Below are positions 10,617 through 46,747 of a stretch of DNA of 64,000 bases, piece after piece. Position 1 is the stretch's first letter; every line of letters starts with the position of its first letter. Both the position numbers and the translations under genes were made by a program. This stretch comes from an uncultured Candidatus Saccharibacteria bacterium (GTDB lineage: Bacteria > Patescibacteriota > Saccharimonadia > CAILAD01 > BJGX01): contig CAZWVB010000002.1 of assembly GCA_964637185.1 (NCBI GenBank), positions 1,375-65,374 of the forward strand, in the 5' to 3' direction. The notes beneath the pieces were generated by a model. That model was not told where the DNA came from and searched no databases. It saw nothing but the letters and a program-made list of their open reading frames with translations.

Positions 10617-13600
10617 CTAGAAAGCTTGCCAATAAAAACTGGTAGTGGATGCCTGAACGGTGTTTAGCTCTATATCAAAACCTGTTGTAGTAACATTGGT
10701 TGCGCGATACTGACCGTTTACAAAATCTTTGGGGGTCAAACTAATATTTGGAGCCGCTGAAAAAGCAGTAGAAAACGAAACATGAGTACTAGTATTACCT
10801 GCTGACACAGCTGCATTCCCTACATTGTTACCACCGAGTTGCAACCTGCCATTGACATTGGTGGTGCCATCAAAGTTGGCGGTGCCAGTGAAGTGCACTA
10901 AGCCGTTGTATGTAGCTAAGGCGTTGTGGGTTTCGGATCCATTGATCGTACTTGTGCCATTGACAGTAAGGCCACCATTTAGCACTACGTCGTCGGTAAT
11001 TGTAATTAGGCCCGGAGTACTAAGGTCAATACGTGTCTGCAAGGCTGCCAGCTGAGCTTGTGCCTCCTTAAGGCCAGCAATCATGAAGGTATTGAGGTAG
11101 CCATAGTTAATTGTTTTAAGCCCAGTGATCGAATCGGTTTGGACAACCTCTGGCAAATATTGTTCTACTTGCTGAGCAGTAAAGCCATATTGAGTTGACG
11201 GCTCCGTCAGCGGGTCTGATCCTGCTGCCACCCAAGCCTCGTAATCACCCTTCCACTGATAAGTTATGGGCTGCAGGGCTCCAAGCTTCGCTAGAGTTCC
11301 TAACACATTCATATCAACAATGTTCGTCTTGAGTGATTCATCCGATGTACAACTCCAGCCAGTACCTGTTACTACTGTACACTGTGTGCCGGCCGAGCCA
11401 TTGAATCGAGTGACATTAGTAGTTGATGTGTCGGTTAGCTCAAGTTTGAAAGCAGGGGAGAGCGTATCAATGCCTACACTGCCGCCCATAATTGCCATGG
11501 TATTACTTTGGGATACTGTACCAACCCCTGCGTTCAAGCCTATTCCTACAGAATTGGAACCACTCACAATAATGTCCCGACCAAAAGCTGTACTTTCGTT
11601 CCCGCTGGCTTCGGTATTGTCGCCCCAAGCAGTTGCATAGTTATTTGAAGCAATTGTAGAAATGCCCCAAGCTGTCGAAGCATTACCAGACGCAGTGGTA
11701 TTAGTACCGAAAGCTGTTGAGTCTGTGCAGGTAGATTGGTTCCCCGCCCCCCATGATGTGGCCCCAAACCCAAATGGACAATTGAGACCACCATTGGTAA
11801 CATTACCCGAACCCCAAGCCGTGTCTAGTAGACCCGATACCTGATTTCCCTGACCAAAAGCGGTGCCAAATCCAGCACTAGCAACATTCGTGTCCCCCCA
11901 CACGGTTGAACGATCACCACTAGCCGTATTGCTACTGCCAAAAGCCAACGAACTATCGCCGCTAGCAGTAGTGTTTAGTCCAAAAGCAGTTGCTCGGCGG
12001 TTATTGGCAAGTGTTCCAGTACCAAAGGCAGTCGATGCACCATAATATGCTTGATTACCAAGGCCCCAAGCCGTCGCCCCCTCACCAAACAGCGCACTGC
12101 TATTTACAATATTGCCACTACCCCACGTGGTATCAGCACTATTTTGAGCTTGATTGTTTCGCCCCCAAACGGTAGAATCTCCCCCGCTAGCTATATTTAA
12201 GTATCCCCAAGTCGTTGCCCTACCAGCGCTCGCTGTAGTTTCCTGACCCCATGCTGTTGAGGTATCACCAGATGCCACTGTACCTAGACCAAAAGCTGTA
12301 GCACGACGGGCATGCGCATAGCTACCACTCCCCCAAGCAGTTGCCGAAGCGCCAAATGGTGTACCCGAGCTGTCGGCTATTGTTCCCACACCCCACGCGA
12401 AGTCATCAGCTGACAACGCTTGAGTGTTAGCGCCAAATGAAACAGCCGCATCTGCACTGGCTACAGTTTGACGACCAATTGCCAACGAATAAGAACCAGA
12501 AGCAGTAGTTTGATACCCAAACGCCGTTGCGCCAGCACCTGTGGCATTTGTATCATCTCCAAATGCAGTTGATCGTGATCCACTTGCGATTGTTGAGTTA
12601 CCAAAAGCCGTGGAGTCGGTACAAAGCGATTGATTACTACTACCCCATGCTGTGGCGCGTTCACCAAATGGACAGCCAGCTCCCGCATTTGTGAGGTTTC
12701 CAACTCCCCAAACAGTATCATTTATAGTGGTGGTGGTGTTCGCCTGTCCAAAAGCAGTCGAGATAGGGCCTGCTGAAGTATTTTGGTAACCCCAGGCTGT
12801 GGAGCGGTCACCACTGGCGGTGTTGGCATTCCCCCATGCTGTAGATTCAGAATTTGTGGCATTGTTATCAAACCCCCACGTAGTAGAACGCATCCCACTA
12901 GCATCAGACGATTCGCCCCATGCAGTACTTTCGTATCCTATTGCGTTACTTCCACCAAAACCAGTTGCGTAACTATTTTGAGCAGTGCCAGCTCCCCAAG
13001 CAGTAGCTGCCTCTGTACCTACAAATGCAATCGCGCCATTGCCCCAAGCAGTAGAGCGACTGCCATTGGCTTGGGTGTTTATACCCCACGCAGTCGATTG
13101 TCCACCATTGGCAATAGTGGTATTGCCCCAAGCTATGTTTTCATTGCCAGATATTGTGCCTGCCTTGGTGTTGTACCCCAGAGCAACTGAGCGAGTGCCG
13201 GCAGCTTGAGTCGCTTCGCCTCCTGCAAATGACTCGTAGCCACTTGCTGCACCAGCATTAAGAGAGAAAGCATATTGTCCGCTAGCAACAGAGGTGTTTG
13301 AGGCAAACGAAGCGTTACCACTAGCAACCGATCCATTACCGCTTGCGGTTGCATATATATTGGTAGCTTGGGTACTTTGACCCCAGGCAAAAGCATCTTG
13401 GGCGCTGGCCAAAGTACTTTGGCCCAAGGCCGTGGACCAGTTTGCACTAGCAGTATTGGTATTACCAAAGGCAATCGATCCTGTGCCACTAGCAGTAGAG
13501 TTATAGCCTGCAAATGAATGTGCCCCACTGGCTATTCCCGAACCGGTGGCCAAACTATAATCCCCACTTGCCGTACCGTTCGCTAACGCCGTAGCCGCCC

Positions 13601-16100
13601 GCCCGCTTGCAGCAGAACTCTCGCCAAACGCAGCTGAATAGAAATTGTTTGCTGTCGTATTTATGCCAAAAGCGACTGAGTTATTACCGCTGCTTTGGTT
13701 AGCTCGTGCGTTATTACCATAGGCAAATGAATAGGTATTGTAAGCTATCCCAGTACCACCAGCAAACGAAGCTGTTCCACTTGCAGCAGCACTATTTGTT
13801 GAAAAAGAACCGTCGCCACTAGCAACAGAGTTATTTGCTGCAAATGAATATTGACCACTCGCTACCGAGCCATTACCACTAGCGGTGGCATAGTTGTTTG
13901 TGGCCTGAGTGTTGACACCCCAGGCAAAAGCATCTTGGGCATTGGCCAATGTACTTTGGCCAAGTGCAGTAGACCATGTCCCACTAGCAGTAGTAGCATT
14001 TCCAAAGGCGATTGATCCGGTGCCACTGGCAGTGCCAGTATAGCCCGCAAAGCCATATGCGCCGCTGGCCAGCCCAGAACCAGTTGAGAGGCTATAATCT
14101 CCACTGGCTGTGCTGGCGCCTAGTGCTGTTGACCCTCGGCCAGATGCAGTAGAGCCTTCGCCAAACACTGCTGAATAAAAGTTGTTAGCTTGGGTATTGA
14201 TACCAAAAGCCACCGAATTATTACCCGATACATTGTTTGCACGAGCGTTCTGGCCAAAGGCAAACGAATAAGCATTGGCAGCTGTACCTGTTCCGCCGGC
14301 AAAAGAAGCGCCGCCGCTGGCGGTGCCCCCTGCAAAAGCCACCGCACTACCTCCATTAGCAACACCGCCAGCTACACTAAAATCATAGTTGGTATCAAAG
14401 TAGGCACGTTGGACACCATTGGTGCGAATTCTGAAATCTTGATTGTTATTAGTGCCAATATAGTCGCCTGCTCCTACTACATTCCCAGTCAGCAACCAGC
14501 CTGGAGTTGACACGGAAAAACATTGGAAATAACTTCCACCATTTTCAGAACATTGGAATGATCCAGCCCCCGAGTCGTAGTAAAAGCGACCTGTACCGGC
14601 GGGTGCCACAGCTATCCCCGTAGTACCATTTACAGTCACGGCACCAGCACCAACATTTAGAAGTGAGCTTGGCGTACTTGTCCCCACCCCGACTCGTTGA
14701 TTTAACGTATCTACATCAAGTACAACAGTAGTGTCATCTGCCTGACGAACTTGAAAAGCGTCAGTAACGTTACTATCCGGGCTTACATATATTGGCCGCT
14801 GGGTAGCACCGCCAACTACTCCAATCTGATACCCACCAGCTATACCAGCACCACTAAACTGAATTGCATACGGATCAATAATGCCGGTAACGTCTAAATC
14901 TCCATTGACACTGAGCGCCTTGCCGCCAACAGGTGCGCCGCCAATACCCACTTCACCGGCTGTATTGATAGTAAGTCGAGTGATCCCTCCTGTTTCGAGT
15001 TCTAAATTATTCCCATCGTTAGTACCAACTACCAAAGTTGCACCTGTGCTATTACCACCATCACATATTATTGTAAGTGATCCTGGACAAGCCGAGTCAA
15101 AATTAATTGCCAGGTTGCCAGCAGCAGTCAATCGGCCTTGGGCATCGACAGTAAATGTGGCCACTTGGGTTGAGGAACCATAACTACCTGCCGTAACAGC
15201 TGTATTATCCAAATTGAGAGTAATATTGTTGGTTGCAGATGCCGTCGAACTAAGACCAACACCACCTAGTACAGAAAGTGTATCACCTTGTGAAATTGTT
15301 TGGCTCGGTCCAATATCGGCTGCCGCGCTAAATAAATTACCTCCGGTTACTATACAGGTTGGACAGCTAAAATCAACCGTATTTATCCCTGTACTAGCCA
15401 CAATCGGGCCAGTACCGGTAAGAGTAACAGCTGGCCCGGTTTGGCCATTGATAGAGGTAATATTCCCACCTCCACCACCAGCAGCTACACATGAAAAACT
15501 ACTACCATTCCAAAATAATGCTTGGCCACCAACACAGGTTGGTGAATTTATGCTAATCGTACCGGTCGTAGTAATTGGTCCACCTTGTAGCCCGTTTCCA
15601 GTGTTAATTTGAGTAACTGATCCAGCTCCGGCAGGTCCCTGTGAACCTTGCGGACCCTGCGCGCCCGTTGTTCCTGGTGATCCGGCAGGCCCAGTCGGTC
15701 CCTGAGGGCCAGGTACGTTAGATGTATTGTTATTGGTGATTTGTTGATTAATTTCTTGGTTGGTAAGCTGAGTCTGGCTTATAAACTGTTGTAATTGGGG
15801 GCTCAGTTGCTCAACCGTAACACTCCCAACTGATAATTTAGCCCCACTGATGGTTCCATTTGGGATGTTATTAATAGTAGTAAACGTACTGGTCTGGCAA
15901 TTGTTCCTAATACCTAAAAAACGCATATACCAAACATCACTACATAAACCGCGCAACAATATAATCACTATTAATAGCAAGAATGCTAGACCTATCAAAA
16001 GCCAAATCAGCCAATGCGACTTTTTGGTGATCTCGTTATATTCAGATTGGTGATTTAAATTACTCGATTGTTGCACGGTCTTCCAAAGCTTATATACCAA
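10617..16100 (-). CDS. Giant (1827 aa) type-II membrane-anchored fibre protein. It carries a collagen-like triple-helix segment, phage-tail-fibre-like SxAxG repeats and a Peptidase S74-type intramolecular chaperone domain.
   Basis: N-terminal cytoplasmic stretch then one TM helix (HWLIWLLIGLAFLLLIVIILL). Gly-X-Y repeats (GPQGPTGPAGSPGTTGAQGPQGSQGPAG). Long arrays of the ~14-aa unit STAWG-N-ASG (as in phage tail fibre repeats). Near the C-terminus, CTSDESLKTNIVDMN…LQPITYQWK matches the S-x4-K…N-I auto-cleaving chaperone motif of endosialidase-type tail spikes. About 130 further residues share a C-terminal module with the next gene. Confidence 0.8.
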   Translation of the reverse strand: MVYKLWKTVQQSSNLNHQSEYNEITKKSHWLIWLLIGLAFLLLIVIILLRGLCSDVWYMRFLGIRNNCQTSTFTTINNIPNGTISGAKLSVGSVTVEQLSPQLQQFISQTQLTNQEINQQITNNNTSNVPGPQGPTGPAGSPGTTGAQGPQGSQGPAGAGSVTQINTGNGLQGGPITTTGTISINSPTCVGGQALFWNGSSFSCVAAGGGGGNITSINGQTGPAVTLTGTGPIVASTGINTVDFSCPTCIVTGGNLFSAAADIGPSQTISQGDTLSVLGGVGLSSTASATNNITLNLDNTAVTAGSYGSSTQVATFTVDAQGRLTAAGNLAINFDSACPGSLTIICDGGNSTGATLVVGTNDGNNLELETGGITRLTINTAGEVGIGGAPVGGKALSVNGDLDVTGIIDPYAIQFSGAGIAGGYQIGVVGGATQRPIYVSPDSNVTDAFQVRQADDTTVVLDVDTLNQRVGVGTSTPSSLLNVGAGAVTVNGTTGIAVAPAGTGRFYYDSGAGSFQCSENGGSYFQCFSVSTPGWLLTGNVVGAGDYIGTNNNQDFRIRTNGVQRAYFDTNYDFSVAGGVANGGSAVAFAGGTASGGASFAGGTGTAANAYSFAFGQNARANNVSGNNSVAFGINTQANNFYSAVFGEGSTASGRGSTALGASTASGDYSLSTGSGLASGAYGFAGYTGTASGTGSIAFGNATTASGTWSTALGQSTLANAQDAFAWGVNTQATNNYATASGNGSVASGQYSFAANNSVASGDGSFSTNSAAASGTASFAGGTGIAYNTYSFAYGNNARANQSSGNNSVAFGINTTANNFYSAAFGESSAASGRAATALANGTASGDYSLATGSGIASGAHSFAGYNSTASGTGSIAFGNTNTASANWSTALGQSTLASAQDAFAWGQSTQATNIYATASGNGSVASGNASFASNTSVASGQYAFSLNAGAASGYESFAGGEATQAAGTRSVALGYNTKAGTISGNENIAWGNTTIANGGQSTAWGINTQANGSRSTAWGNGAIAFVGTEAATAWGAGTAQNSYATGFGGSNAIGYESTAWGESSDASGMRSTTWGFDNNATNSESTAWGNANTASGDRSTAWGYQNTSAGPISTAFGQANTTTTINDTVWGVGNLTNAGAGCPFGERATAWGSSNQSLCTDSTAFGNSTIASGSRSTAFGDDTNATGAGATAFGYQTTASGSYSLAIGRQTVASADAAVSFGANTQALSADDFAWGVGTIADSSGTPFGASATAWGSGSYAHARRATAFGLGTVASGDTSTAWGQETTASAGRATTWGYLNIASGGDSTVWGRNNQAQNSADTTWGSGNIVNSSALFGEGATAWGLGNQAYYGASTAFGTGTLANNRRATAFGLNTTASGDSSLAFGSSNTASGDRSTVWGDTNVASAGFGTAFGQGNQVSGLLDTAWGSGNVTNGGLNCPFGFGATSWGAGNQSTCTDSTAFGTNTTASGNASTAWGISTIASNNYATAWGDNTEASGNESTAFGRDIIVSGSNSVGIGLNAGVGTVSQSNTMAIMGGSVGIDTLSPAFKLELTDTSTTNVTRFNGSAGTQCTVVTGTGWSCTSDESLKTNIVDMNVLGTLAKLGALQPITYQWKGDYEAWVAAGSDPLTEPSTQYGFTAQQVEQYLPEVVQTDSITGLKTINYGYLNTFMIAGLKEAQAQLAALQTRIDLSTPGLITITDDVVLNGGLTVNGTSTINGSETHNALATYNGLVHFTGTANFDGTTNVNGRLQLGGNNVGNAAVSAGNTSTHVSFSTAFSAAPNISLTPKDFVNGQYRATNVTTTGFDIELNTVQASTTSFYWQAF

Positions 16101-16128
16101 GTATAAGCGCTATTGAGCAGTGTTACAA

Positions 16129-18474
16129 CTATTCTTGTGCTTGCCAATCAAACTTGGTGTCAGTAGTCTGAGCTGATTCCAACTCAATAGTAAATCCGCT
16201 GGCCGATTTGGACTTCAGCCAATAGCGTCCGCCGGTATCACTACTCGGGCTAACAACGATATTTGGCGTCTTCGAATACGATGTCGAGAAACTATATCCA
16301 CCGGACTTCTGGCCAGCTGGAATAACAACTGTACCGCGGGTGTTGGCGTTCCCACTCACTATGCCTTTTATTATTATATTGCCACCTATGGTAACATCGC
16401 CGCCAAACTCGACAGCTTTGCTATCGGCGAGTTGTTTGAGCGCATCCATGCTAGTACCAGTAGCTGAGTTTTTTAGTGTGTCTATTTGTTTTTGTTGCTC
16501 TTGAACTGCAGAGACCAGATAGGGGATGAGGCCATCTTTGCTCAGAGTTTTGGTGCCATCGGGCAGTTGCGATACTAGACCTGGCAATACTTTTTCAACT
16601 TCTTGTGCGATGAATCCTGCTACTGCTTGGCCATCCGGTGAAGTTTTCCAGTTGTATGTAACACCTCGAAGCTCCATGATCTTGTCCAGCCCTCCATTGA
16701 TACTTAAGATGTTTTGCTTAAGTTTTTCATCCGATACACAACTAAGCGATCCGAGCCCAGTGTCTACCGTACACGTACCTGAAGTACCAGTAAAATTGGC
16801 TGGTGTATCGTCTGAAGTGTCGACTACACTAAGCCTGTTTGTAGGACTGCCAGCGCCAATGTTGAAATTCCCATCCTTATCAACACGGCTGACTACAGTA
16901 CCAGCCAATCCGCCACCAGTTTGCCATTGAGTAAGATCACCTGTTTGGCCAGTGATGCCCTGTACCACAAGAGGTTTATCAGTAGTTGCTGCGGAGTGTA
17001 CAATCAGTGATGCATTTGAATCATCAACAAAACTGGTTTTTGGGTTGATAGTCAATTTGGTACCCCCTGGTGGCGCGGCTAGACAGAAAAATGTGCCCAG
17101 TACCGAGCTGGGAGTAAGATTGTTTGCACAAGCACCAATCGAGACTTTACCTTCAAAATAATTGTTACTGTTGTAGCCTTCAGATACGAGATTGGCGCTG
17201 CCGACTGATCCACTTTGCTGATACTGGATATCAATACCCACTTGGTGGCTAATGGTGTTTGGCTCATAAAGTGTTGGGAAGCCAAGAAAGGCAAGTGAAG
17301 GGTCCTGGGGATCAACTATGGTATTGCCTGAGTAATAATCTATTACGCCATTGAGTGATCCGCCGTTGTAGGTAATAGGAATAGTCGCGCTGCCAAATGC
17401 GTAGGCTATATCACCAGAGCCAAAATTGGATACTGTATTGAGTTGGGCTGCTTGCATAAATACCGTACCGCTACCAGCATGTGTTACCGCGTTCATTACT
17501 CCGCCATTGAGATAGAAGTCTTTCGAGTTGTCCTTGTCAGTCTGCAGGGCCGAATACCCACCAGCATAAATGTTTTTATTACCACCGGCAACGGTTCTAA
17601 AACCAAGAATGCTCCCTAATATGACTGGAGCATATTGCGGATTGGCCAGCAATTCGTTGGCAGTGCCAACAAAAATGCTTCCTGGATTTGGATTGTTTGT
17701 TGAAATCTGTTGTACGGATAGAATACGTTGGATATCGTCATTGGAGAATAATGGACCCGTATCTAGAATGGACGTATTTGGAGTAGACTGCGCCCCCACC
17801 AACAAATAATTGTCTACCTTTGCTGCACCATTGACCTCGAGACTAAGTGCTGATATCGAAGGCACACTAGTGTTGACCCCCACAAAATTGGTAGCGGTAC
17901 TAACACTCAATACTGGCGCGGCCGAAGCATTCTGCACAGAAAAGGCCGATACTGAGTTGCTACTGTTGCGAAATATCTGATTGGTACCAGTGAAGGCCTG
18001 GAAGTTCTTATTGGTATAGGCGATAAATGGATCGAGCTGGCTTGGCTGCAACACACCACTAATATTGTTAGCTTGGAGGTTGGTAATGCCGCTTCCATTA
18101 CCCTGCAGATTGGCTGCCGTAATCGTACCTGTGGCGGTGATATCGCCGTTTACAGCCAGCACACCCTGTTGTGCTTGAGCCAGGGGCTGATTACCTAGAT
18201 TGAAGCTTACCGGCTTGTAGCGCTCAGCGGGGTTGGCAAACTGGCTTACCTGGCTACGATTGCGCCATATCAAAATTACTGCTGTAGTAAATAGCAGCAG
18301 CAATGCAATAGCCGCAGCTATCCAAAGTGCTTGATAGAATCGATTACGCCGATGCAACTTGGCGATCTCGGCATTTTCAGCCGAAACTGCCGCGTCAGTC
18401 GATTGACCTTGCAGCTGTCCAGAAAAAGTCGCTTGTTCCAACGAAACATTTGGTGTGTTTGTTTCTCCGTCCAC
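16129..18474 (-). CDS. Second (781 aa) type-II membrane-anchored fibre-like protein with a Peptidase S74-type intramolecular chaperone domain.
   Basis: GTG start. TM helix (ALWIAAAIALLLLFTTAVILIW). Motif CVSDEKLKQNILSINGGLDKIMELRGVTYNWK. Its C-terminal ~90 aa (…TPNIVVSP…GFTIELESAQTTDTKFDWQAQE) are shared with the 1827-aa protein (…APNISLTP…GFDIELNTVQASTTSFYWQAF). Only 28 nt separate it from the downstream gene. Confidence 0.75.
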   Translation of the reverse strand: MDGETNTPNVSLEQATFSGQLQGQSTDAAVSAENAEIAKLHRRNRFYQALWIAAAIALLLLFTTAVILIWRNRSQVSQFANPAERYKPVSFNLGNQPLAQAQQGVLAVNGDITATGTITAANLQGNGSGITNLQANNISGVLQPSQLDPFIAYTNKNFQAFTGTNQIFRNSSNSVSAFSVQNASAAPVLSVSTATNFVGVNTSVPSISALSLEVNGAAKVDNYLLVGAQSTPNTSILDTGPLFSNDDIQRILSVQQISTNNPNPGSIFVGTANELLANPQYAPVILGSILGFRTVAGGNKNIYAGGYSALQTDKDNSKDFYLNGGVMNAVTHAGSGTVFMQAAQLNTVSNFGSGDIAYAFGSATIPITYNGGSLNGVIDYYSGNTIVDPQDPSLAFLGFPTLYEPNTISHQVGIDIQYQQSGSVGSANLVSEGYNSNNYFEGKVSIGACANNLTPSSVLGTFFCLAAPPGGTKLTINPKTSFVDDSNASLIVHSAATTDKPLVVQGITGQTGDLTQWQTGGGLAGTVVSRVDKDGNFNIGAGSPTNRLSVVDTSDDTPANFTGTSGTCTVDTGLGSLSCVSDEKLKQNILSINGGLDKIMELRGVTYNWKTSPDGQAVAGFIAQEVEKVLPGLVSQLPDGTKTLSKDGLIPYLVSAVQEQQKQIDTLKNSATGTSMDALKQLADSKAVEFGGDVTIGGNIIIKGIVSGNANTRGTVVIPAGQKSGGYSFSTSYSKTPNIVVSPSSDTGGRYWLKSKSASGFTIELESAQTTDTKFDWQAQE

Positions 18475-18545: not shown

Positions 18546-18800
18546 CTATACATTGGCAAACAAGGTGACTACACCACTACGTACCCGCAATATGCCGCGC
18601 TCGAGATGAAATCGCCTCTTGCCATACGGTGTATCCAGACTGACTGGACCTTGGCTGATGATACTGACAAAGTTGGCATGTTCAGGTAATATATCAAACG
18701 TGCCCTGACTATTGGCTGCAGTCAAACTAAACGCTTCGCCTTCATAAAAAACCTCAAAAGGGGAGTAGAGTTTGACCAAAAAACGCTCAGTGCGATCCAT
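18546..18800 (-). CDS. F1-ATPase epsilon-subunit-like protein. Beta-sandwich domain only, 84 aa.
   Basis: Aligns to the epsilon N-terminal domain (…G.FDILPEHANF…GG.L.V…VT.LA). It follows the beta-like gene in the canonical alpha-gamma-beta-epsilon order. The C-terminal helical hairpin of canonical epsilon is absent. Confidence 0.65.
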   Translation of the reverse strand: MDRTERFLVKLYSPFEVFYEGEAFSLTAANSQGTFDILPEHANFVSIISQGPVSLDTPYGKRRFHLERGILRVRSGVVTLFANV

Positions 18801-18805: not shown

Positions 18806-20131
18806 TTACTGTATGGTTAATATTTCCTCGACTGCTGCCAAAGTCTCTTCACGTCCCACGTACTGGCCCTGTTTGCCAGTCAGCGGCTGGGTTACAAACA
18901 GTGGCTGCTGAAATAGCTCAATCAAGCGTTTGGCCTTGCTATAGGCTTGGCGATCTTGTACTGACAATTCGGCTTCACCTATGATCGTGACTATTCCCTT
19001 CAAATCTTGATACTTCTGTAGCACTTTTTGAGCCTCCATAGCCAAGAAGTAGTGCTTCTCGCCTACTATTTCCGGACTTAGCAAAGAGCTACTTGTGTTG
19101 ACCAGATCTACTGCCGGCAGGATGCCTTGCTCCATAATTTCTCGGCTAAGCACAATTACACTGTCCAGTTGCTGGTATATCTCCACCACAGCTGGGTCCG
19201 ATAGATCATCGGCTGGTATATATATCGACTCCACGCTCGTGATAGAACCATTTTCATTCGAGTCAAGTCCTGCTTGAAATCGAGATAGGTCTGTGAACAG
19301 ACTAGGTTGATAGCCACCCTCGCTTAGTCTTTCACCACGCAGCATGGCCAGCTCATTGCCAGCCTGCAAAAATCTGTAGATATTATCAACGAAGAAAAGT
19401 ACATCGGTTTTTTCTTGATCCCGAAAGTGCCTGGCTGAAGCAGCTGCTATCTGGCCAACCAACCAACGACGAACTGCTGTCTCATCCATTTGACCCAGAT
19501 ACATTACTGTTGATTGCATCAACTTGGTTTCTTCAAGGGTCATGTACAGCTCATGTGCCTCTCTTATCCTCTCACCAATACCTGCAAATATCGAAACCCC
19601 TAGCTTGCGTTTGCAAACATTGTGCATCAATTCTGTGGTAAGTACTGTTTTACCAACTCCCGAGCCACCGACTATACCAATCTTGCGACCACGTACAAAT
19701 GGCGCCAAGAAATCAACCACCTTGATACCAGTCTCAAGTAAATCAGCACTAGCGCCATAACCTGATTTACCGGTATGCCGATAGGCTTCCAGCGGAAACA
19801 GTTGTGTTTTGTTATGATCTTCTGTGGACATCAGATTGTTGTGCTGACAATCCCAGACACCACCTAAAGCAGACTTACCGCTGCAAAAACTGATTGTATT
19901 TGTCGATGCCTCGACTACTTCACCTAGACCTATCTCGTCTTGGGTTCCAAGGCTTAGACACGTCACTCGTGTTGAATGCTGCTCAACCACCATAAGTTGT
20001 GTCATGTGCGTGTTCTTGGCAGTCAATAAAGCAAACTGGCTGAGCACAGGCATATTATTACTCCATTCGACCTCAACTAAAATATTATCGATTGCTACCA
20101 CTCTGCCGGTATTCATGATTGATAACTCCAT
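18806..20131 (-). CDS. F1-ATPase beta-subunit-like catalytic P-loop protein. Divergent, 441 aa.
   Basis: GRKIGIVGGSGVGKTVLTTELMHNV (canonical GGAGVGKTV). IFAGIGERIREAHELY (canonical VFAGVGERTREGNDLY). LFFVDNIYRF and GSITSVESIYIPADDLSDPA are also present. The DELSEED region is degenerate (EAELSVQD). Confidence 0.85.
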   Translation of the reverse strand: MELSIMNTGRVVAIDNILVEVEWSNNMPVLSQFALLTAKNTHMTQLMVVEQHSTRVTCLSLGTQDEIGLGEVVEASTNTISFCSGKSALGGVWDCQHNNLMSTEDHNKTQLFPLEAYRHTGKSGYGASADLLETGIKVVDFLAPFVRGRKIGIVGGSGVGKTVLTTELMHNVCKRKLGVSIFAGIGERIREAHELYMTLEETKLMQSTVMYLGQMDETAVRRWLVGQIAAASARHFRDQEKTDVLFFVDNIYRFLQAGNELAMLRGERLSEGGYQPSLFTDLSRFQAGLDSNENGSITSVESIYIPADDLSDPAVVEIYQQLDSVIVLSREIMEQGILPAVDLVNTSSSLLSPEIVGEKHYFLAMEAQKVLQKYQDLKGIVTIIGEAELSVQDRQAYSKAKRLIELFQQPLFVTQPLTGKQGQYVGREETLAAVEEILTIQ

Positions 20132-20946
20132 TGGTAAGCCAATGATTCAACATCTCTCCGCCGGCGCAAATAGACATTGAGCTGTCGTCTCGTTTTTTGA
20201 AGCTCAGCCTTAGCTGATTCACTAGCCCGAGACAAACTGTTGTACCTATACGCCAACTGCGAAAGAGTAGACTCGAGCACTATTTGAGTTACAGCTATCG
20301 AGCTCATAGTGCTTTCTAAATACTCAATCACTTCTTCAAGACTTGGCTCAAAAATGTAATCACTCGCAAACATCAGCTCGCTATCGGTACTGCTTGACTG
20401 TTTCTGCAAGCGAGCTACACTTTCATGTAATTCAAACGCCACAACTTGTTGCTCAGTGACTGATTCAAACCTAGCAAAATATAAGGTAACAGTCTTATAG
20501 CCAGATAGGTAGTTGATGATTGGCACCACATTGACCTTGGATTCCAAGCTTGGTAGATGAAATGACTTGCTGACTTCGACGTTGCGACTTGCCAAAAGCT
20601 GAGCCCCACGAGTGCCGATAGTCACAATGTCCGTAGAACGTGTCTTAATACCTTCTAGCATAGTTTGGATAATCTGCTCATCAAGCCCACTAGCAAAACT
20701 CAAGTCAGAACTGATTAGTACTGCCGTACTCCCCGATTTCGGAATTGTTTTTTTTGCCTTTGTGGGCACATCGATCCTCAACTGATCATACATAGCCCAC
20801 AGCTCATGAAAGAATTCCCTCGCCTGCAACACTCGGTCACGAATTTGGCGGATTTGCAGCGAGCTAATATTCTCATAAGCCTGTACTACCTGAGAAATTG
20901 TGCTTAAATCATTGAGTTGGGTCTGTAAATCTTGCAATCTTGCCAT
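20113..20946 (-). CDS. F1-ATPase gamma-subunit-like protein
   Basis: 277 aa. The N-terminal helix MARLQDLQTQLNDLSTISQVVQAYENISSLQIRQIRDRVLQAREF resembles gamma (…I.SV.NT.KIT.AMEMVAA.K.R…). It sits between the alpha-like and beta-like genes and overlaps the beta-like start by 19 nt. Confidence 0.7.
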   Translation of the reverse strand: MARLQDLQTQLNDLSTISQVVQAYENISSLQIRQIRDRVLQAREFFHELWAMYDQLRIDVPTKAKKTIPKSGSTAVLISSDLSFASGLDEQIIQTMLEGIKTRSTDIVTIGTRGAQLLASRNVEVSKSFHLPSLESKVNVVPIINYLSGYKTVTLYFARFESVTEQQVVAFELHESVARLQKQSSSTDSELMFASDYIFEPSLEEVIEYLESTMSSIAVTQIVLESTLSQLAYRYNSLSRASESAKAELQKTRRQLNVYLRRRRDVESLAYQWSYQS

Positions 20947-20947
20947 G

Positions 20948-22330
20948 TCAAATCTCCGGGTTACTCTTTAGCAAATCTTTGGCTAGTTCGCGATAATCCG
21001 ATTCTTTGGTATCTGGTTTTACCACGTCACCAATTACTGCTTTGAGCCACGATACATTTAGATTATTGGGTTCCTCGCTCAAAAAAATTGTTTCAAGCAT
21101 GACTCTTTGCATAGGCAAGGTATATGTGCCACCAAGGTCTTGTATGAAAAGCTCAAATAGTTTGCGACCTACAGCAAGGTTTTTTTGTGATGCAACTGAA
21201 AGTTTGGTATTAAATCTTGAATATGTCTCCACTTCCGAATATGCTGCGAGTGATTGTAGTATGCGTTCCGACATATTTTGATAGTAGGTGCTCTGCGCAC
21301 GGCCACCAACACGACTCACTGACAAACCTATATTGAGAGCCGGCCTGATACCTTGACGCATGGTCTTAAGGTCAAACACCAATTGACCATCGGCTGTCGA
21401 TATCATGTTGGTTGGGAAATACCCAGTCAAATCATCATTGGGCGTGGTAGCCACTGCAAAGGCAGTCAAACTCTTGCCGGTCTCGGCATTGAGTCCAGCC
21501 CTTTCTAGCAAGCTTGCGTGCACATAGAATAGATCGGCTGGATAACTTTCTCGCCCTGGCTGCATACCAAGTTGTAATGCCATTTCTCGATATACCTTGG
21601 CGTGAGTTGCTAGATCATCATAGACCACCATGACATCATTTTGCTGCCAATAATGTTCAGCCAGTGCACACCCAACAAAAGGCGCTAGGTATTGTAATAC
21701 TATATTGTCTAAGGCGTCGGCCACGACAATAATACTTCGATCCATTACGCCTGCTTGGTACAAACGAAAGGCTAATTTTTCAATATCTTGCTTGCGTTTG
21801 GCAATTTCTACAAATACAGCTATTGAATTGCTATTTTTTAAATGATGTATGGCTGCTTGGCTTAGCATACTTGATTTGCCAGCTTTGGCGTCACCAATCA
21901 CAGCTATCCTCTGGCCTTTGACAACTGGGAAAAGTGAATCGATGATTGTGACACCTGTTTCTAATTGTTGATTGACTAACCCTCGCTTATTGATTGGTAA
22001 CGCCTTGCCAAACACTGATTGCAAGACCAGCTCAGAACCCTTGTCTATTGACTCTTTTTGCAACAGGTCATAAACCTGATGGGTTTTCCCAAGTGTGTCT
22101 TTATTGATCTGCACTTGCAAGCTCCTAAACTGTGGCTTGATATGTTGGCTATCAATTCGTCCATCGGGAGTGAGCGAAAGGGCTTGAACAGTTTGTGCGC
22201 TTGCCTTGTGTACTAGAGCAGCAGCATTATCAGCCTGTATAGTCGCCTGTAAATGTATGCCTTCAATGGGCCCACTGGTCAGTATGTAGTCGTTGCTACT
22301 ATTTACTGATTGCTTTGTGCTCTCCTGCAT
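20948..22330 (-). CDS. F1-ATPase alpha-subunit-like P-loop protein. Divergent, 460 aa.
   Basis: GQRIAVIGDAKAGKSS (canonical GQRELIIGDRQTGKT). YLAPFVGCALAEHYW, VVYDDLATHAKVYREMALQLGMQPGRESYPADLFYVHASLLERAG match the alpha-subunit signature YLAPY.GCA.GE…[41 protein letters not shown]. Confidence 0.85.
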   Translation of the reverse strand: MQESTKQSVNSSNDYILTSGPIEGIHLQATIQADNAAALVHKASAQTVQALSLTPDGRIDSQHIKPQFRSLQVQINKDTLGKTHQVYDLLQKESIDKGSELVLQSVFGKALPINKRGLVNQQLETGVTIIDSLFPVVKGQRIAVIGDAKAGKSSMLSQAAIHHLKNSNSIAVFVEIAKRKQDIEKLAFRLYQAGVMDRSIIVVADALDNIVLQYLAPFVGCALAEHYWQQNDVMVVYDDLATHAKVYREMALQLGMQPGRESYPADLFYVHASLLERAGLNAETGKSLTAFAVATTPNDDLTGYFPTNMISTADGQLVFDLKTMRQGIRPALNIGLSVSRVGGRAQSTYYQNMSERILQSLAAYSEVETYSRFNTKLSVASQKNLAVGRKLFELFIQDLGGTYTLPMQRVMLETIFLSEEPNNLNVSWLKAVIGDVVKPDTKESDYRELAKDLLKSNPEI

Positions 22331-22331: not shown

Positions 22332-23183
22332 TCAAACTCCTATTATTATGTATACGCCAGCAAAGGCGGCAAAGATTATTATTACTACTGCTAATATCAC
22401 TTGACCTAGACTGCGAAGTACAGCTGGTTTGGCCAGCGGATTGCGGCCTATGGAGCGTATGCTAGAAGTGACGGCCGAAAATAGCACTACCATAGCCGCG
22501 ATTGTCGATATCACTACCACCGCAAACGCCGCAGCGGCACGGATCGGTGTAAGCTTTTTACCAGCCAGGTTTGAACTAAGTGCTTGCAGACCAGTTAGCG
22601 CATTGTTGCCAGATTGGCTACCAGTCGGCTGGTATTGCCCAAGTTGAATATCAGAGTTAATTAGACCAATATCATAGCTGTGATTATCACCTTTGTTATC
22701 TGTTAGCTGACGACTGGTTTTGTTTTCCATATCGCTACTGCTAGACCTAGCAATGCCTACCAAAGTACCACTAGTTGTAGCTTTCATCGCCACCCCATCA
22801 ATAGGTGATAGAGTCAAACTATCACCAGGGCTGATTGGACCATTGATGTTACTTACCAAGATTTTGCTTGGTCCAGAGCTAGTCACCTGTACATTGCTAC
22901 CTGTCGGACTTACTGAGACGACGCCCTGCGTCACAGTACTAGTCACACCTACAATAGGTTGATTATTTTGGAGCGAGGCCGTCTCAACATTGGTCTGGCT
23001 GTTAGTAGCCAAGCTTACAATGGATCCAGCCGATATTGCGACTGAAGATGTATAGCCCTGAGTCACATTAGCAGCTACCGCCGGTACAGCAAAGAACATG
23101 CCTACAGCTACCATGGCACCCAACAACCTTATTCGAAACCAGCAAAACACCTGAGAACATGTGTTCTGCGAAACACTACTCAT
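22332..23183 (-). CDS. Signal-anchored Ser/Thr-rich ectodomain protein. Its C-terminal two-helix hairpin resembles an ATP-synthase c subunit but lacks the conserved carboxylate.
   Basis: N-terminal hydrophobic segment LLGAMVAVGMFFAVPAVAAN. About 190 aa of S/T/N/Q-rich sequence. C-terminal hairpin AAAAFAVVVISTIAAMVVLFSAVTSS-IRSIGRNPLAKPAV-LRSLGQVILAVVIIIFAAFAGVYIIIGV, with a polar loop (RNP) like the c-subunit RQP loop but no Asp/Glu in helix 2. It is immediately upstream of the alpha-like gene. Confidence 0.55.
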   Translation of the reverse strand: MSSVSQNTCSQVFCWFRIRLLGAMVAVGMFFAVPAVAANVTQGYTSSVAISAGSIVSLATNSQTNVETASLQNNQPIVGVTSTVTQGVVSVSPTGSNVQVTSSGPSKILVSNINGPISPGDSLTLSPIDGVAMKATTSGTLVGIARSSSSDMENKTSRQLTDNKGDNHSYDIGLINSDIQLGQYQPTGSQSGNNALTGLQALSSNLAGKKLTPIRAAAAFAVVVISTIAAMVVLFSAVTSSIRSIGRNPLAKPAVLRSLGQVILAVVIIIFAAFAGVYIIIGV

Positions 23184-23232: not shown

Positions 23233-23853
23233 CTACTTCCTAGTTTTGCCGGCTAGTTTTAGTATCAGCTCAATCAGAACGCCTAGCACACCGCCTAATA
23301 TCAGTAGTACCAATAGTAGCCAGTTCGGTAGCGGGTAACCATAGACTCGTGCTGCAAAATACACTACTAGTCCCATGCCTATGCCAACAACTGCGCCACC
23401 GATCAGTACGGAAGGACGCAGTATTGTTTTTTCGGCAGCATTACTAACTGTTTCTACAACAGGATTGTGAACAACTTTGGAAAAAGCCCTACTGCCAGCT
23501 GGCAACTGTGTTTGTATTTTGCCAAGTTCTTTTTTGTAGACGCGTTTTTGCTCGGCTTTGGTCAAAGGCGTCTTTGGCTTTTTCTCAACTTCCTTAGCTT
23601 TTTCAGACTTCTTTTCTTCGGCTTCTTTGGATTTTTCCTGCTTACGAGCTAGATCAGACTCTTTTTTCTCCAATTCCGCTTTTATCTTGCGTTCAGCAGC
23701 TTCTCCCTTGCGGGCTAGATCAGCTTCGTCACGTTTTTGTTCAGCCTTAGATTTTTCAGCTGATCGATTACGCTCAAGACTTTCGGAGCTACTTTTGGAT
23801 AGCTTAGCCTCAGATTCTTGTCGTTCTACTAATTTCTCTTCATCCGCCGCCAT
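23233..23853 (-). CDS. K/E-rich coiled-coil protein with two C-terminal transmembrane helices.
   Basis: 206 aa. About 110 aa of charged low-complexity sequence (EKKESDLARKQEKSKEAEEKKSEKAKEVEKK), then VLIGGAVVGIGMGLVVYFAARVY and LLLVLLILGGVLGVLIELILKLAGKTRK. The start overlaps the stop of the upstream gene by 1 nt. Confidence 0.5.
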   Translation of the reverse strand: MAADEEKLVERQESEAKLSKSSSESLERNRSAEKSKAEQKRDEADLARKGEAAERKIKAELEKKESDLARKQEKSKEAEEKKSEKAKEVEKKPKTPLTKAEQKRVYKKELGKIQTQLPAGSRAFSKVVHNPVVETVSNAAEKTILRPSVLIGGAVVGIGMGLVVYFAARVYGYPLPNWLLLVLLILGGVLGVLIELILKLAGKTRK

Positions 23854-26210
23854 TACTTGCCGCCTCCCTCATTTAGTGTTTCTAGTAAATCTAGCTCACG
23901 CTTCATGAGACGATTCTTAAGCAGTAAGAATATCGACATGGCAGCAAGTAAGCCCATCACTATCAGACTAGCCGCTGCGCCTGTTCGCGGTAATTGAGCA
24001 GCAGTACAGTCAAGCCTCTTGGCTGGGTTCACACTAATCGGAGTCACCACTACATTGCCCTCAAATCGATCTTCCATCTGACAATCGTAGTTCTGATTAT
24101 CGGTTGGCTTTTGTGCAGTTGTTGGGATTGGATCTTTGACTTGTACGGTAAAGCTCTTAGTGATATATGTCGGATCATTTGGGTTGGTACTGACAGGTAT
24201 GTCTACAGCAGGCCAGACCAGTGAAGTTCTTGTAGCTTCTACTTTCAACTCCGCGCCGCCTTTATCTATCACATCGGCATACATGATGATATCTGAGATA
24301 TCGTCTTTGAATATATAGCCTTTGATGGGAGCAGTACCTATATTGGCAAGACCAATAGTATAGGTTAGCTTGTCTCCTGCTCTAGCCGTAGCACCGTTAG
24401 CATCAGTCGGTTTACCATCACTTGTCAATATGGTTAGATTCTTGACAGTCTTGCGGAACACATGCTGCTCAAACTTCAGTGGTAGCGTACAGGTCGGCTT
24501 GCTAGAAGTCACTGACCCATCAGCTCCAACAACTGTTACTTTGGCTGTATAGCTACCTCCATTCTGATAAGTGTGCTTGATATCTTTGATCTCAAGAGCG
24601 CCACTTGTCACTGTTTGCTTGCCACCATCTCCGAAGTCAAACTGGTATTCCTTGATAGTGGTGTTGAGCGCACCTCCTCGAGCTGTGAAATTGACGTCTA
24701 CAGGAACAGTATCACTGGTGGTGGGTGTGCCAGTGAGACTGACACAAGTAATATCTTTCGGCTGAGGTGTGACTACAAAAGGTACTCCACAGCTTGGCCT
24801 GTCTGGTGCAGGATTGCCGTTCACGCTATCATACACTCGTAATAGTATCAGATAACTACCTGGAGCGGTGGTTTCAAACTGAGTCGCACTAAAACCGGCT
24901 GGATTCTGAGAATTTGCTAATGGGTCTACCAGGGTATTTTGGGTTGGGAAGGTGTGGATTATTCTTGATTTTGCTTCTTGATATGTTTTGCCGTTTTGCG
25001 TATACGTCGGCCCTGCTGTGCCTGCGGGCACCTCCTTGAGGTATAAGTATTCAAATTTTCGAGCGAATACATCTGGTCCAATTTGCCCTTCTTGGAGCGC
25101 TGTACCTTTGATAAATGGTGTAAATGGTGCTTGGAACGTAAAGTTGTTGTTCTGATTGGCCATGTCCAGCCCACCACACACTAGGGTCTTAGGAGCCTGC
25201 ACCTGTACATCTCGCGAACATTCTCCTGTACCACTTCCGGAGGCAAAATATTTAACGCCATTTACATCGAAGAACACTACTAATCTGATCTGATAATTAC
25301 CAGGCTGATTGAATTTGAAAACCCTGAGTGTACCGTCTTCAAAAACTCCAGGCGACTTTTGACCAACGCCACTTGCGGATTGAAGTGGTGGGCTCACTTG
25401 GCTATCAGTAACCAGTTGGCCATCCTTGTACACTCCATACGCCATATCAACCAATTCACCTGGATCCACATTCTGACCATTGGCATAACCTCTATAGCCA
25501 ATCTCTGATCCAGCCGCGATAGGCCCAGGCACAGTGTAATTTAATGAGGCACAGCTAATTTCCTTGGGTGGTGGAGGTGGTGGTACTGGCAAAAGAATAA
25601 TATTACCACATTCTAGGATGACTCCCCACTGATACCATCCTTCAGGTATGCCAGGCCCACCATCTGTTACGTGGACAATTTGGCTTGGATCAGTACCACC
25701 CATAAGCGCATTAAAACATATACCGTCATTGGCATTTGGATTACCCCAGCGATGTACCGATGATCCTACCCAAATATTTGGCTGCCATTCTACTGAAGTG
25801 TTGCCACCATCTTGGCTACGACCCATGGAAATCCAGTTGTCACCCTCACGTGCGCCCCCTCCGTTTGGGCCACAAACTGAGACTCCAGCTGCCTGCATCT
25901 TTTCTCGGCTGATACCAAGCCGACCAAAAACTTGATTAATTCCGTCACGATTCTGATCCCAAACCGCCGATATAAGCGAGTCTTTATTGAAAGGGGCACC
26001 TGTTATCAGGTCAAAGGGGCTTGCTGCAAAGCTTGGTTTGGGCGGAGCTAGAAGTGTAAATATTTGGAACAGCAAAAGCCCGATAATAAATATGCTAGCG
26101 ATACGTCTGGTAGCAGTCTCGGCTACTAGACGTTTTATATAGTAACCAATACGATCTGGTGACAGTCGCCCAGCAGACACCGAAGTCACAATATCTTTAA
26201 AGTTTATCAA
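23853..26210 (-). CDS. LPXTG (LPRTG) cell-surface protein with PKD-like and DUF11-like repeat domains.
   Basis: 785 aa. N-terminal signal-anchor (IASIFIIGLLLFQIFTLLAPP). PPPPPP linker. PKD-type motif (YQFDFGDGG…TYQNGGSYTAKVTVV). DUF11-like segment (LTYTIGLANIGTAPIKGY). C-terminus LPRTGAAASLIVMGLLAAMSIFLLLKNRLMKRE. Confidence 0.7.
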   Translation of the reverse strand: MINFKDIVTSVSAGRLSPDRIGYYIKRLVAETATRRIASIFIIGLLLFQIFTLLAPPKPSFAASPFDLITGAPFNKDSLISAVWDQNRDGINQVFGRLGISREKMQAAGVSVCGPNGGGAREGDNWISMGRSQDGGNTSVEWQPNIWVGSSVHRWGNPNANDGICFNALMGGTDPSQIVHVTDGGPGIPEGWYQWGVILECGNIILLPVPPPPPPKEISCASLNYTVPGPIAAGSEIGYRGYANGQNVDPGELVDMAYGVYKDGQLVTDSQVSPPLQSASGVGQKSPGVFEDGTLRVFKFNQPGNYQIRLVVFFDVNGVKYFASGSGTGECSRDVQVQAPKTLVCGGLDMANQNNNFTFQAPFTPFIKGTALQEGQIGPDVFARKFEYLYLKEVPAGTAGPTYTQNGKTYQEAKSRIIHTFPTQNTLVDPLANSQNPAGFSATQFETTAPGSYLILLRVYDSVNGNPAPDRPSCGVPFVVTPQPKDITCVSLTGTPTTSDTVPVDVNFTARGGALNTTIKEYQFDFGDGGKQTVTSGALEIKDIKHTYQNGGSYTAKVTVVGADGSVTSSKPTCTLPLKFEQHVFRKTVKNLTILTSDGKPTDANGATARAGDKLTYTIGLANIGTAPIKGYIFKDDISDIIMYADVIDKGGAELKVEATRTSLVWPAVDIPVSTNPNDPTYITKSFTVQVKDPIPTTAQKPTDNQNYDCQMEDRFEGNVVVTPISVNPAKRLDCTAAQLPRTGAAASLIVMGLLAAMSIFLLLKNRLMKRELDLLETLNEGGGK

Positions 26211-45976: not shown

Positions 45977-46003
45977 AGCATTACGATTTCTGCCATAATT
46001 TTT

Positions 46004-46747
46004 GTGTGCGCCAATGCTCGTTTGTATTTCAAACTTTTTTTAAGCAAAATAATATTCATGCAAATTTCACTCGTCATCCCCGCCCACAACGAAGCCGAAT
46101 ATATAGGCCGATGTTTGGCCGCGGCGTCAGCCCAATCGCAGCCGTTTGCCGAAATAATTTTGGTCGACAACAATTGCGCTGACAAGACTATTGAAATCGC
46201 CCGCCACATGCAACTCAAAAATTTGCACGTAGTTCGTGAAAACAAACAAGGCATCGGCCATGCCCGCAGCGCAGGATTTGACGCGGCTCGTAGCGACATT
46301 ATTGCCCGCATAGATGCCGATACTATCCTACCAACAGATTGGAATAAGCAAATATTAGCTGATTTTGACCAAGAAAAGCCCGATGCTATCACCGGCCCAG
46401 CCTACTTTTATGATTTCCCGCGTATTGTGCGACCTGCTATCACCTGGTTGCACATACGTCTCTACTTCCACCGCACCGCCCAAATGATGGGCAGCCCGAC
46501 CCTGTGGGGCTCAAACATGGCAATTACCAAGGCTATGTGGCAGCGAGTTAAGCCCAAAATTACTGATGACGACTCGCTGGTGCACGAGGATGTCGATCTT
46601 GCTCTCCAAATTCACCGTGCTGGCGGCAACATATACTTCGACCCGAAGCTCCTAGTGGGTGTCAAAATGCGTCAGCTCTACAGATCACCACGCAATACTA
46701 TCGCTTACTTCCGCCGGCGCCGCACTACCATTGAGCGCAGCAAGTAA
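46004..46747 (+). CDS. Glycosyltransferase family 2
   Basis: 247 aa. ISLVIPAHNEAEYIGRCL, VDNNCADKT, ARIDADTIL (the DxD-type region). GC is elevated relative to the upstream housekeeping genes. Confidence 0.7.
   Translation: MCANARLYFKLFLSKIIFMQISLVIPAHNEAEYIGRCLAAASAQSQPFAEIILVDNNCADKTIEIARHMQLKNLHVVRENKQGIGHARSAGFDAARSDIIARIDADTILPTDWNKQILADFDQEKPDAITGPAYFYDFPRIVRPAITWLHIRLYFHRTAQMMGSPTLWGSNMAITKAMWQRVKPKITDDDSLVHEDVDLALQIHRAGGNIYFDPKLLVGVKMRQLYRSPRNTIAYFRRRRTTIERSK

Follow-up and report, generated by a model that had tools for sequence, protein, structure and literature searches.

A subunit c-like membrane protein without the ion-binding carboxylate, encoded with an F1-like ATPase in Saccharibacteria: candidate component of a second, non-respiratory F-type motor

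The DNA analysed in this study, hereafter the window, is a stretch of 64,000 nucleotides (nt) from an uncultured Candidatus Saccharibacteria bacterium (assembly GCA_964637185.1, contig CAZWVB010000002.1). The gene under study lies at 22332..23183 on the minus strand, with its stop codon at 22332-22334. It encodes a protein of 283 amino acids (aa) that combines a predicted signal peptide, a beta ectodomain and a C-terminal hairpin of two transmembrane (TM) helices resembling subunit c of ATP synthase. We refer to the gene and its product as c'. A preliminary description, made from the sequence alone, had reported the open reading frame (ORF) at these positions. The 283-aa ORF was present, but its strand had to be corrected to minus, and the plus-strand translation of 22332..23183 was riddled with stops. 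The NCBI version of the protein has 260 aa and starts at Met24, so the start codon of c' is ambiguous.

In the window, c' opens a compact run of minus-strand genes, c'-alpha-gamma-beta-epsilon. The first two gaps are 1 nt each, gamma and beta overlap by 19 nt, and beta and epsilon are 5 nt apart. The alpha-like gene (460 aa, 20948..22330; Pfam ATP-synt_ab, E 7e-59) starts 1 nt after the c' stop codon and is preceded at 8 nt by an AGGAG within the end of c', in agreement with the earlier statement that c' lies directly upstream of an alpha-like gene. It is followed on the same strand by a gamma-like subunit (277 aa, 20113..20946; PF00231, E 1e-27), a beta-like catalytic subunit (441 aa, 18806..20131; ATP-synt_ab, E 2e-58) and an epsilon-like subunit of 84 aa (18546..18800; PF02823 ATP-synt_DE_N, E 7.6e-12, 45.5 bits against a cut-off of 27). 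The epsilon-like gene had not been listed before; its product consists of the beta-sandwich domain only and lacks the C-terminal inhibitory helices of canonical epsilon. The catalytic motifs of the head are intact. Both the Walker A motif (GDAKAGKS) and the arginine finger (SVSRVG) are kept in the alpha-like protein, and the beta-like protein retains Walker A (GGSGVGKT), GERIRE with the catalytic Glu of GERxRE, Walker B and DNIYRF, while its DELSEED motif is degenerate (ELSVQD). A scan for promoters and terminators gave counts no different from those of shuffled sequence. The surroundings are ordinary chromosome, including gyrA/gyrB, pheS/pheT, argS, a UvrD/AddA-type helicase-nuclease, an aldolase, purE/purC and a transfer-messenger RNA (tmRNA) gene.

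The alpha-like protein scored 318 bits on the NCBIfam AtpA model (cut-off 554) and 216 bits on the MSC_0619 model (cut-off 520). The beta-like protein reached 375 bits on atpD (cut-off 463), about the same as its 372 bits on the Mycoplasma F1-like model MSC_0618 (cut-off 570), and the gamma-like protein also scored under the TIGR01146 (AtpG) equivalog cut-off. Since alpha, beta and gamma all fall under the NCBIfam equivalog cut-offs, the set in the window is probably not the housekeeping ATP synthase.

The N-terminus of c' (residues 1-38, 23070..23183, minus strand) reads MSSVSQNTCSQVFCWFRIRLLGAMVAVGMFFAVPAVAA, followed by NVTQ. It has a positively charged n-region (FRIR), a hydrophobic core and an AxA-like site (AVAA before N), and a helix was modelled at residues 11-30 by AlphaFold2 (AF2), in line with the signal or anchor segment proposed earlier. 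We take this segment as a predicted signal peptide or N-terminal anchor, with cleavage and topology likewise predicted. The AF2 model, built from a 113-sequence alignment, had a predicted local distance difference test (pLDDT) value of 86.3, with 182 residues at or above 90. The segment is followed by an all-beta ectodomain (residues 39-206, 22566..23069, minus strand) that includes a short amphipathic helix at 194-207 and carries the motif NGxIxxGDxxTxSPxxGVAMKAT. The region had been described as an S/T/N-rich extracellular stretch. The composition stands, with 55% S/T/N/Q/G over residues ~39-206, but the model showed a confidently folded all-beta domain at 40-184, with pLDDT >90 over most of that span, rather than a low-complexity or disordered linker.

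The c-subunit-like hairpin occupies residues 207-283 (22335..22565, minus strand). Its helices, 213-247 and 249-282, were modelled with pLDDT >90 and meet in the loop GRNPLAKP (246-253), as in the helix-RNPLAKP-helix arrangement first described. The absence of acidic residues was borne out too: neither helix contains Asp or Glu, and residues 208-283 hold zero of each. The loop residues G246-R-N-P-L250 (22434..22448, minus strand) are the counterpart of the R-Q/N-P loop by which subunit c contacts gamma and epsilon, and GRNP aligned with the RNP or RQP of solved c subunits. In ungapped alignments to the Chloroflexus subunit 9itj_H and to a canonical c profile, the column of the ion-binding Asp/Glu fell on V267 (codon 22383..22385, minus strand), 18 residues after the loop Pro. 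Taken alone, a TM hairpin without Asp or Glu is unremarkable, and its conservation across relatives was examined.

A word-indexed search returned 121 relatives of 250-315 aa with the same architecture and E-values down to 1e-148; those with names came solely from Saccharibacteria/Saccharimonadales. When 1.84 billion cluster representatives were searched with a profile, 20,247 matched at E<=1e-3, of which 7,126 reached E<=1e-10 and 1,236 reached E<=1e-30. Counted at this last cut-off in clusters of 50% identity, c' belongs to a large unannotated family with no fewer than 1,236 clusters, and the best 150 matches were all full-length. A second search, seeded with the most distant matches, led to a Microgenomates-type branch (source names Levybacteria and Roizmanbacteria). 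GRNP was present in 371/374 collected relatives, and the tail after its Pro was 33-36 residues long. The Leu after GRNP was invariant in the Saccharibacteria alignments and variable in the Microgenomates-type group (LGRNPAA, LGRNPMA, LGRNPYK). The column equivalent to V267 was hydrophobic in all members (L/V/I/F/A/M), and no Asp or Glu occurred at +14..+27 after the loop Pro, the canonical position of the carboxylate, in any of 371 sequences; a seeming Asp/Glu at +22 in L078 was due to indexing, and that sequence has none. An alignment of orthologues had been proposed as a check on the hairpin, and the hairpin proved to be the best-conserved part of the protein. With an invariant GRNP, a fixed tail length and a profile score far over that of the controls described below, the hairpin pattern is non-random.

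We compared the hairpin with ATP-synthase subunit c at the level of the family. A profile of Saccharibacteria hairpins was searched against 177,635 PDB sequences, and the two best matches were c subunits (Chloroflexus 9itj_H, E 0.003, covering both helices; Acetobacterium c2, E 0.068). Pfam ATP-synt_C matched 4/59 Saccharibacteria hairpins, with the joint-highest member count and the lowest E-value among Pfam families, and the NCBIfam model with the most matching members was 'F0F1 ATP synthase subunit C' (5/113, weak, best 0.0083). In an hhalign comparison with a canonical c profile, which was made of ten subunit c sequences, the Saccharibacteria hairpins aligned over 73 columns with P 6e-4. 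This real pair scored 22.8, and none of 32 reversed or column-shuffled controls exceeded 12.1. The Microgenomates-type hairpins were closer to subunit c. All of the top 8 PDB matches of their profile, and 14/18 matches overall, were c subunits; hhalign against canonical c gave 88.4% probability and E 2.8e-6 over 70 columns; and 14/40 members matched PF00137 singly, at best with 3e-5. Their loop GVEALGRNPLA mirrors the canonical vEgiaRQPea, including the Glu at -6. The two branches were linked by hhalign of the hairpin alone (98.9%, E 3.4e-17) and also have the ectodomain and the operon in common. In addition, the COG annotation of the Joint Genome Institute (JGI) labels two members as c/K subunit.

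The structural search suggested earlier gave the same direction. In Foldseek, the hairpin superposed on c subunits of known structure from Chloroflexus, Bacillus PS3, Mycobacterium and mammals, with a root-mean-square deviation (rmsd) of 1.3-2.4 A and a TM-score of up to 0.87; the best c match was 9itt_I (TM-score 0.87, rmsd 1.3 A over 67 columns). The likeness to subunit c noted in the preliminary description was therefore weak for the target alone and clear at the family level. That description had tied its suggestion to detectable profile similarity to subunit c and to conserved C-terminal helices among orthologues, and both were found. These results support the view that the c' hairpin is probably a derivative of ATP-synthase subunit c.

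The loci of c' in other genomes were scanned with one genome per species; 119 relatives were found and 80 loci were kept, nearly all from Saccharibacteria/Saccharimonadia. The scan was seeded with a 12-sequence subset, which biased the 80 loci to Saccharibacteria of the SI[RI]SIGRNP type. In 55/80 loci, c' was followed by alpha-gamma-beta, so that, beyond the reported co-encoding with an F1 head, c' takes the place of c in an operon resembling atp. Among these 55, a b'-like gene of ~206 aa with an N-terminal TM helix and a coiled coil occurred in 47, a delta'-like gene of ~167 aa in 44, and an epsilon-like gene of ~100 aa after beta in 42. The usual order, c'-b'-delta'-alpha-gamma-beta-epsilon, is that of the canonical atp operon minus its first gene, a. 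The delta' genes gave OSCP matches of E 3e-4 to 0.02 and the epsilon genes matched down to E 2e-16, while one of three b' genes tested matched ATP-synt_B (E 0.17). Three relatives at 20-25% identity kept the same gene arrangement. Within +/-10 kb of the 55 operons, neither a conserved multi-TM family nor a protein with the a-type R-x-x-G/A-N motif was found.

Compared with subunit c (AtpE, PF00137; e.g. Chloroflexus aurantiacus 9itj/9itt, Bacillus PS3 6n2d), c' thus shares a two-helix hairpin of ~75 residues, the polar loop (G/A)-R-(N/Q)-P, with the Glu at -6 in the Microgenomates branch, a predicted N-out/C-out topology and a gene placed just upstream of b, delta, alpha, gamma, beta and epsilon. 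In contrast to subunit c, the members of the c' family lack the helix-2 Asp/Glu at the canonical position, helix 1 is without the GxGxGxG packing motif, the hairpin is preceded by a signal peptide and an extracellular beta domain of ~170 residues, and the operon has no a subunit. Two defining functional features of subunit c, the carboxylate and, within +/-10 kb of the operons, the partnership with an a subunit, are therefore missing from c'.

A polar residue elsewhere in helix 2 might take over ion binding. Position +12 after the loop Pro corresponds to Q261 of the window protein (codon 22401-22403). It lies within helix 2, close to the cytoplasmic side, and faces a conserved patch of helix 1 with Tyr at -14 and Ser at -8 to -13. 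Together, these residues could form a displaced site for H+ or Na+, served by an a subunit encoded elsewhere in the genome. This position was Gln in ~55% and Asp/Glu in ~15-22% of Saccharibacteria members, and some genomes have a canonical a subunit (PMC12592800). However, most members carry Gln rather than a carboxylate, and +12 is hydrophobic (F/L/I/M) in the Microgenomates branch, so that a polar site is not family-wide. Such a site would also sit near the cytoplasmic interface and not in the middle of the membrane, no a-like gene was linked in 55 loci, and several Saccharimonadia genomes have alpha/beta/gamma and no a, b or c by KOfam (PMC12592800). We consider a displaced ion site very unlikely.

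The ectodomain was compared with known proteins. No Pfam match was found for this domain in the target c' itself. Among 113 members, 38 matched XM1_gp53_minor_capsid (PF23982; best 4e-5), six matched Phage_cement_2 (PF09956) and two matched Phage_cement. Foldseek of the ectodomain against the viral models of BFVD gave 33 matches at E<=1e-3 (best 6e-9), including preneck-appendage, DUF2190 and Mtd_N proteins, often as one domain within long fibre proteins. The best PDB matches were the phage portal-vertex/capsid chains 9kmh_ak and 9gb0_C (Foldseek E 0.013-0.022). The same beta domain, including the motif GD..PGVAMKAT, was found inside a 1068-aa fibre-like protein of locus L023. Apart from the hairpin loop, the only invariant columns of the protein are a few Gly, Asp and Ser of the ectodomain motif NGxIxxGDxxTxSPxxGVAMKAT. 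Because the fold is found both in phage cement proteins and in the L023 fibre-like protein, we read the ectodomain as an oligomerising or docking module common to phage particles and the surface fibres of these bacteria. It resembles the phage cement/decoration proteins (PF23982; PF09956, formerly DUF2190) in fold, with weak sequence similarity in one third of members, but differs from them in being fused to a membrane hairpin and in being encoded in a chromosomal housekeeping neighbourhood (gyrAB, pheST, argS) and not in a virion module. A prophage origin, raised by the cement-like domain and the S74 domain of a neighbouring fibre-like protein, was dropped in view of this housekeeping context and the conservation of the operon across Candidate Phyla Radiation (CPR) bacteria.

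As the beta domain also occurs in a fibre protein and the target alone gave no match to subunit c, c' might be an ordinary surface protein with a generic two-helix anchor that is merely co-transcribed with the ATPase genes. A variant of this explanation is a VirB2-like type IV secretion pilin: 3/59 Saccharibacteria hairpins gave weak T4SS_pilin matches (best E 0.017), and a VirD4-like gene lies 3 kb upstream. However, VirD4 was nearby in 7/80 loci versus 55/80 in which alpha-gamma-beta followed, and T4SS_pilin matched 0/40 Microgenomates-type hairpins versus 14/40 for ATP-synt_C. The 88% hhalign probability to subunit c and the failure of the controls also speak against coincidence, as do the invariant loop, the fixed helix length and the retained position in the c slot across members diverged to ~20% identity. 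We regard a coincidental resemblance as extremely improbable.

These observations led us to the reading that c' is probably a c-derived membrane subunit of a second, non-respiratory, ATP-hydrolysing F-type motor of the ultra-small CPR bacteria (Saccharibacteria, Microgenomates), with a mechanical output at the cell surface. In such a motor, the signal peptide would deliver the ~170-residue beta domain to the outside of the cell, and the C-terminal hairpin would lie in the membrane in the topology of subunit c, with N-terminus out, loop in and C-terminus out. The alpha3beta3 head would hydrolyse ATP, which is proposed because beta keeps the catalytic motifs. Gamma and the minimal epsilon, reduced to its beta-sandwich, the domain for binding ring and gamma, would dock on the cytoplasmic GRNPL loops of an oligomeric c' ring and turn it relative to the head, which would be held by the b'/delta' stalk where this is present. 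A crown of beta domains on the outer face of the ring would then transmit torque or force to the cell surface rather than ions. Because there is no a subunit and the residue at the carboxylate column is hydrophobic, the complex could not couple to an ion gradient by the known mechanism.

Several observations weigh against this reading of c' as part of a motor. The last 75 residues of the target alone had no Pfam ATP-synt_C match even at E<=10 and no NCBIfam match, and all single-sequence scores on Pfam ATP-synt_C were under the gathering threshold. The direct hhalign probability between the Saccharibacteria hairpins and subunit c was just 28%, and the Foldseek E-values of the c matches were weak (0.17-0.9); a helical hairpin is a simple fold. 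Because the target alone is without a c match and direct hhalign reaches 28%, the assignment to subunit c rests on a transitive chain together with genomic context. Moreover, the small clade of the window (L001, L003, L006, L027, L040, L043, L065) has lost b' and delta'; with the stalk missing and no evident stator, simple rotation is harder to picture there. Solo c' paralogues, with no ATPase gene within 10 kb, were found next to giant surface proteins, and since they lie away from ATPase genes, the c' family may act independently of an F1 head. Immediately after a solo c', an ORF of 600 aa or more (mostly 2,000-3,300 aa) was present in 13/15 cases, and 13/47 operons were likewise followed by an ORF of 600 aa or more.

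Solo c' genes occurred in L023, L029, L031, L033, L034, L039, L045, L054, L066, L069, L070, L071 and L080, at ~9.4-10.2 kb in most, with ORFs of 800 to more than 3,200 aa directly after them. parA/parB and signal peptidase genes were often present upstream of solo c'.

The loss of the stator in the window clade and the solo paralogues would also fit a static anchor. Here c' would still be c-derived, and a non-turning ring or smaller oligomer, its ectodomain fixed to the wall or surface layer, would tether the F1-like ATPase to the membrane. The ATPase would do other work, for which the unfolding or export activity of FliI/FliJ at the type III export gate is an example; alternatively, it is the head that would move. 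The cement-type beta fold, which serves to lock structures on capsids, is consistent with this explanation, and the preliminary description had already allowed that the ring could 'anchor or rotate'. On the other hand, most operons keep the b'/delta' stalk, gamma and epsilon, a torque-resisting set that would be dispensable for a passive tether, and the loop that contacts the rotor foot is invariant. The retention of the stalk in most operons argues for torque, while its loss in the window clade and the solo paralogues call for caution. A static anchor, the main rival of a motor with mechanical output, is in our judgement unlikely.

Directly downstream of the operon, two membrane-anchored fibre-like surface proteins are encoded on the minus strand (10617..18474). 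The first, of 781 aa (16129-18474), has a C-terminal Peptidase_S74 (endosialidase chaperone) domain as in phage tail fibres (E 2e-15). The second, of 1827 aa (10617-16100), has an N-terminal membrane anchor, collagen-like GPxG repeats and a C-terminal SDE.LK motif. Both are N-terminally anchored and contain long Ser/Ala/Gly/Thr-rich repeats. The association of giant fibre proteins with c' genes is recurrent, and a functional link between them is putative. In the window clade, the operon is flanked by such Peptidase_S74 fibre proteins and by a group of VirD4-like, PKD-domain and 206-aa proteins.

The members of the latter group lie upstream of c' on the minus strand. The 206-aa protein (23233..23853), directly upstream, is rich in K/E at its N-terminus and ends in two TM helices, of which one contains Arg and the other Glu; it matched no Pfam or NCBIfam family. 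Next to it is a 785-aa surface protein (23853-26210) with PKD and DUF11-type domains, which ends in LPRTGAAAS, a hydrophobic helix and a basic tail, as in a sortase-type LPxTG anchor; it matched the NCBIfam model 'CPR pilus system RbmA-like protein PamR' weakly. A VirD4/TraG-like coupling ATPase of 834 aa (26280-28784) is encoded 3 kb upstream of c'. The VirD4-like, 206-aa and PKD proteins travelled together in 7-8/80 loci, and no other type IV secretion genes were seen nearby. The 206-aa protein occurred in 8/80 loci, always with the PKD-domain protein; two of these loci carry b'/delta', and the window-type locus L006 is without the 206-aa protein. Its place is probably with the upstream PKD/VirD4 group and not with the ATPase. 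A role as a substitute b-type stator was considered and dropped, as the protein co-occurs with the PKD/VirD4 genes and not with the loss of b'/delta'.

An L,D-transpeptidase (YkuD) with PG_binding_4 domains is encoded in the interval from pheT to the VirD4-like gene (29287-30768, minus strand), and the order pheT, L,D-transpeptidase, 228-aa protein, VirD4 was kept in the window clade. The tmRNA gene lies at 50505-50885 on the minus strand (Rfam RF00023, 115 bits), with the tag peptide AKSLMRNLVNSSLAPAYA. A GC-rich patch at 46000-50000 (0.55-0.57 versus ~0.45 elsewhere) carries genes for a family-2 glycosyltransferase, purE (AIR carboxylase), purC (SAICAR synthetase) and a histidine phosphatase, and may have been acquired horizontally.

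Previous reports have described F1 heads of this kind. A table of KEGG Orthology (KO) assignments in the supplement of PMC12592800 contains some Saccharimonadia genomes with alpha/beta/gamma but no a/b/c by KOfam, and larger Saccharimonadia genomes in which a single a/b/c set is accompanied by two sets of alpha/beta/gamma. Seymour et al. 2023 (PMC10066038) reported a non-respiratory F-type ATPase of Omnitrophota, whose alpha groups with Mycoplasma type 2/3 and whose beta groups with Saccharimonadia, and proposed that it might serve in attaching to host cells or in moving on them. The c' operon probably belongs to the same enzyme class. The enzyme of PMC10066038, however, was defined by alpha/beta phylogeny and linkage to type IV pili, with no c-like subunit mentioned, whereas the c' operon is linked to giant fibre proteins. 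In ProAD (PMC11738941), 20 F/N-type enzymes with a recognised c lacking the carboxylate were counted in 45,555 bacterial genomes; c' operons would escape this count because the pipeline requires a and c.

The closest parallel in architecture is Protein 5 of the Mycoplasma F1-like X0 ATPases of Type 2/3 (MSC_0620 / MMCAP2_0577; Beven 2012, PMC3369863; Berlureau 2026, PMC12994834). According to published descriptions, the two C-terminal TM helices of MSC_0620 are uncharged and the protein is non-homologous to any F0 subunit (PMC3369863; PMC12994834). Protein 5 and c' have in common a signal peptide, a large non-membrane domain, two C-terminal TM helices with a short loop, the absence of membrane charges and a gene adjoining alpha-like and beta-like genes. 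The F1-like X0 head hydrolyses ATP for a non-bioenergetic surface function, as is predicted for the c' operon. The MSC_0620 model of NCBIfam did not match the target, nor did it appear among the matches listed (25 of 66 families) for 113 members. In the window, no neighbouring protein matched the 12-TM Protein 1 (MSC_0624) or Protein 2, and no such family was conserved in 55 loci. The Mycoplasma clusters have the 12-TM Protein 1 and no b/delta, whereas in most CPR operons b'/delta' are retained and a 12-TM protein is absent, and the gene order differs.

A more far-reaching proposal is that the c' ring would serve as a transmembrane drive shaft, spun by the ATP-powered F1 head and no longer carrying ions. 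Its crown of cement-like domains would act on the giant proteins resembling tail fibres whose genes adjoin c', and these wall-bearing epibiotic bacteria would thereby have a rotary device, driven by ATP, to move, tension or reset surface fibres while attaching to host cells. On this view, Mycoplasma Protein 5 would represent one and the same innovation, too diverged to be recognised by sequence. We offer this as speculation and think it unlikely.

In the searchable literature, we found no description of a c' subunit, of a carboxylate-less c with an N-terminal extension, of a CPR c-ring or of a Saccharibacteria 'F1-like ATPase'. What is new here is the membrane subunit; F1 heads of this class had already been noted in Saccharimonadia by published work.

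To our knowledge, a carboxylate and an a-type stator couple the proteolipid ring to the flow of ions in every characterised rotary ATPase. In the c' family, the ring subunit, rotor foot and catalytic head are retained, as the peripheral stalk usually is; the carboxylate and the a subunit are gone, and each protomer has gained an outward domain. This anatomy of the operon is what would be expected of a motor that sends mechanical work, not ions, across the membrane. c' is a concrete candidate for the membrane partner of non-respiratory F-type ATPases, which have so far been recognised from alpha/beta trees only, and it suggests where the rotor still missing from the MIB-MIP and gliding ATPases of Mycoplasma might be sought. 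For Saccharibacteria, it also means that an annotation of 'F-type ATPase present' based on alpha/beta/gamma alone may count an enzyme that is unable to make ATP.

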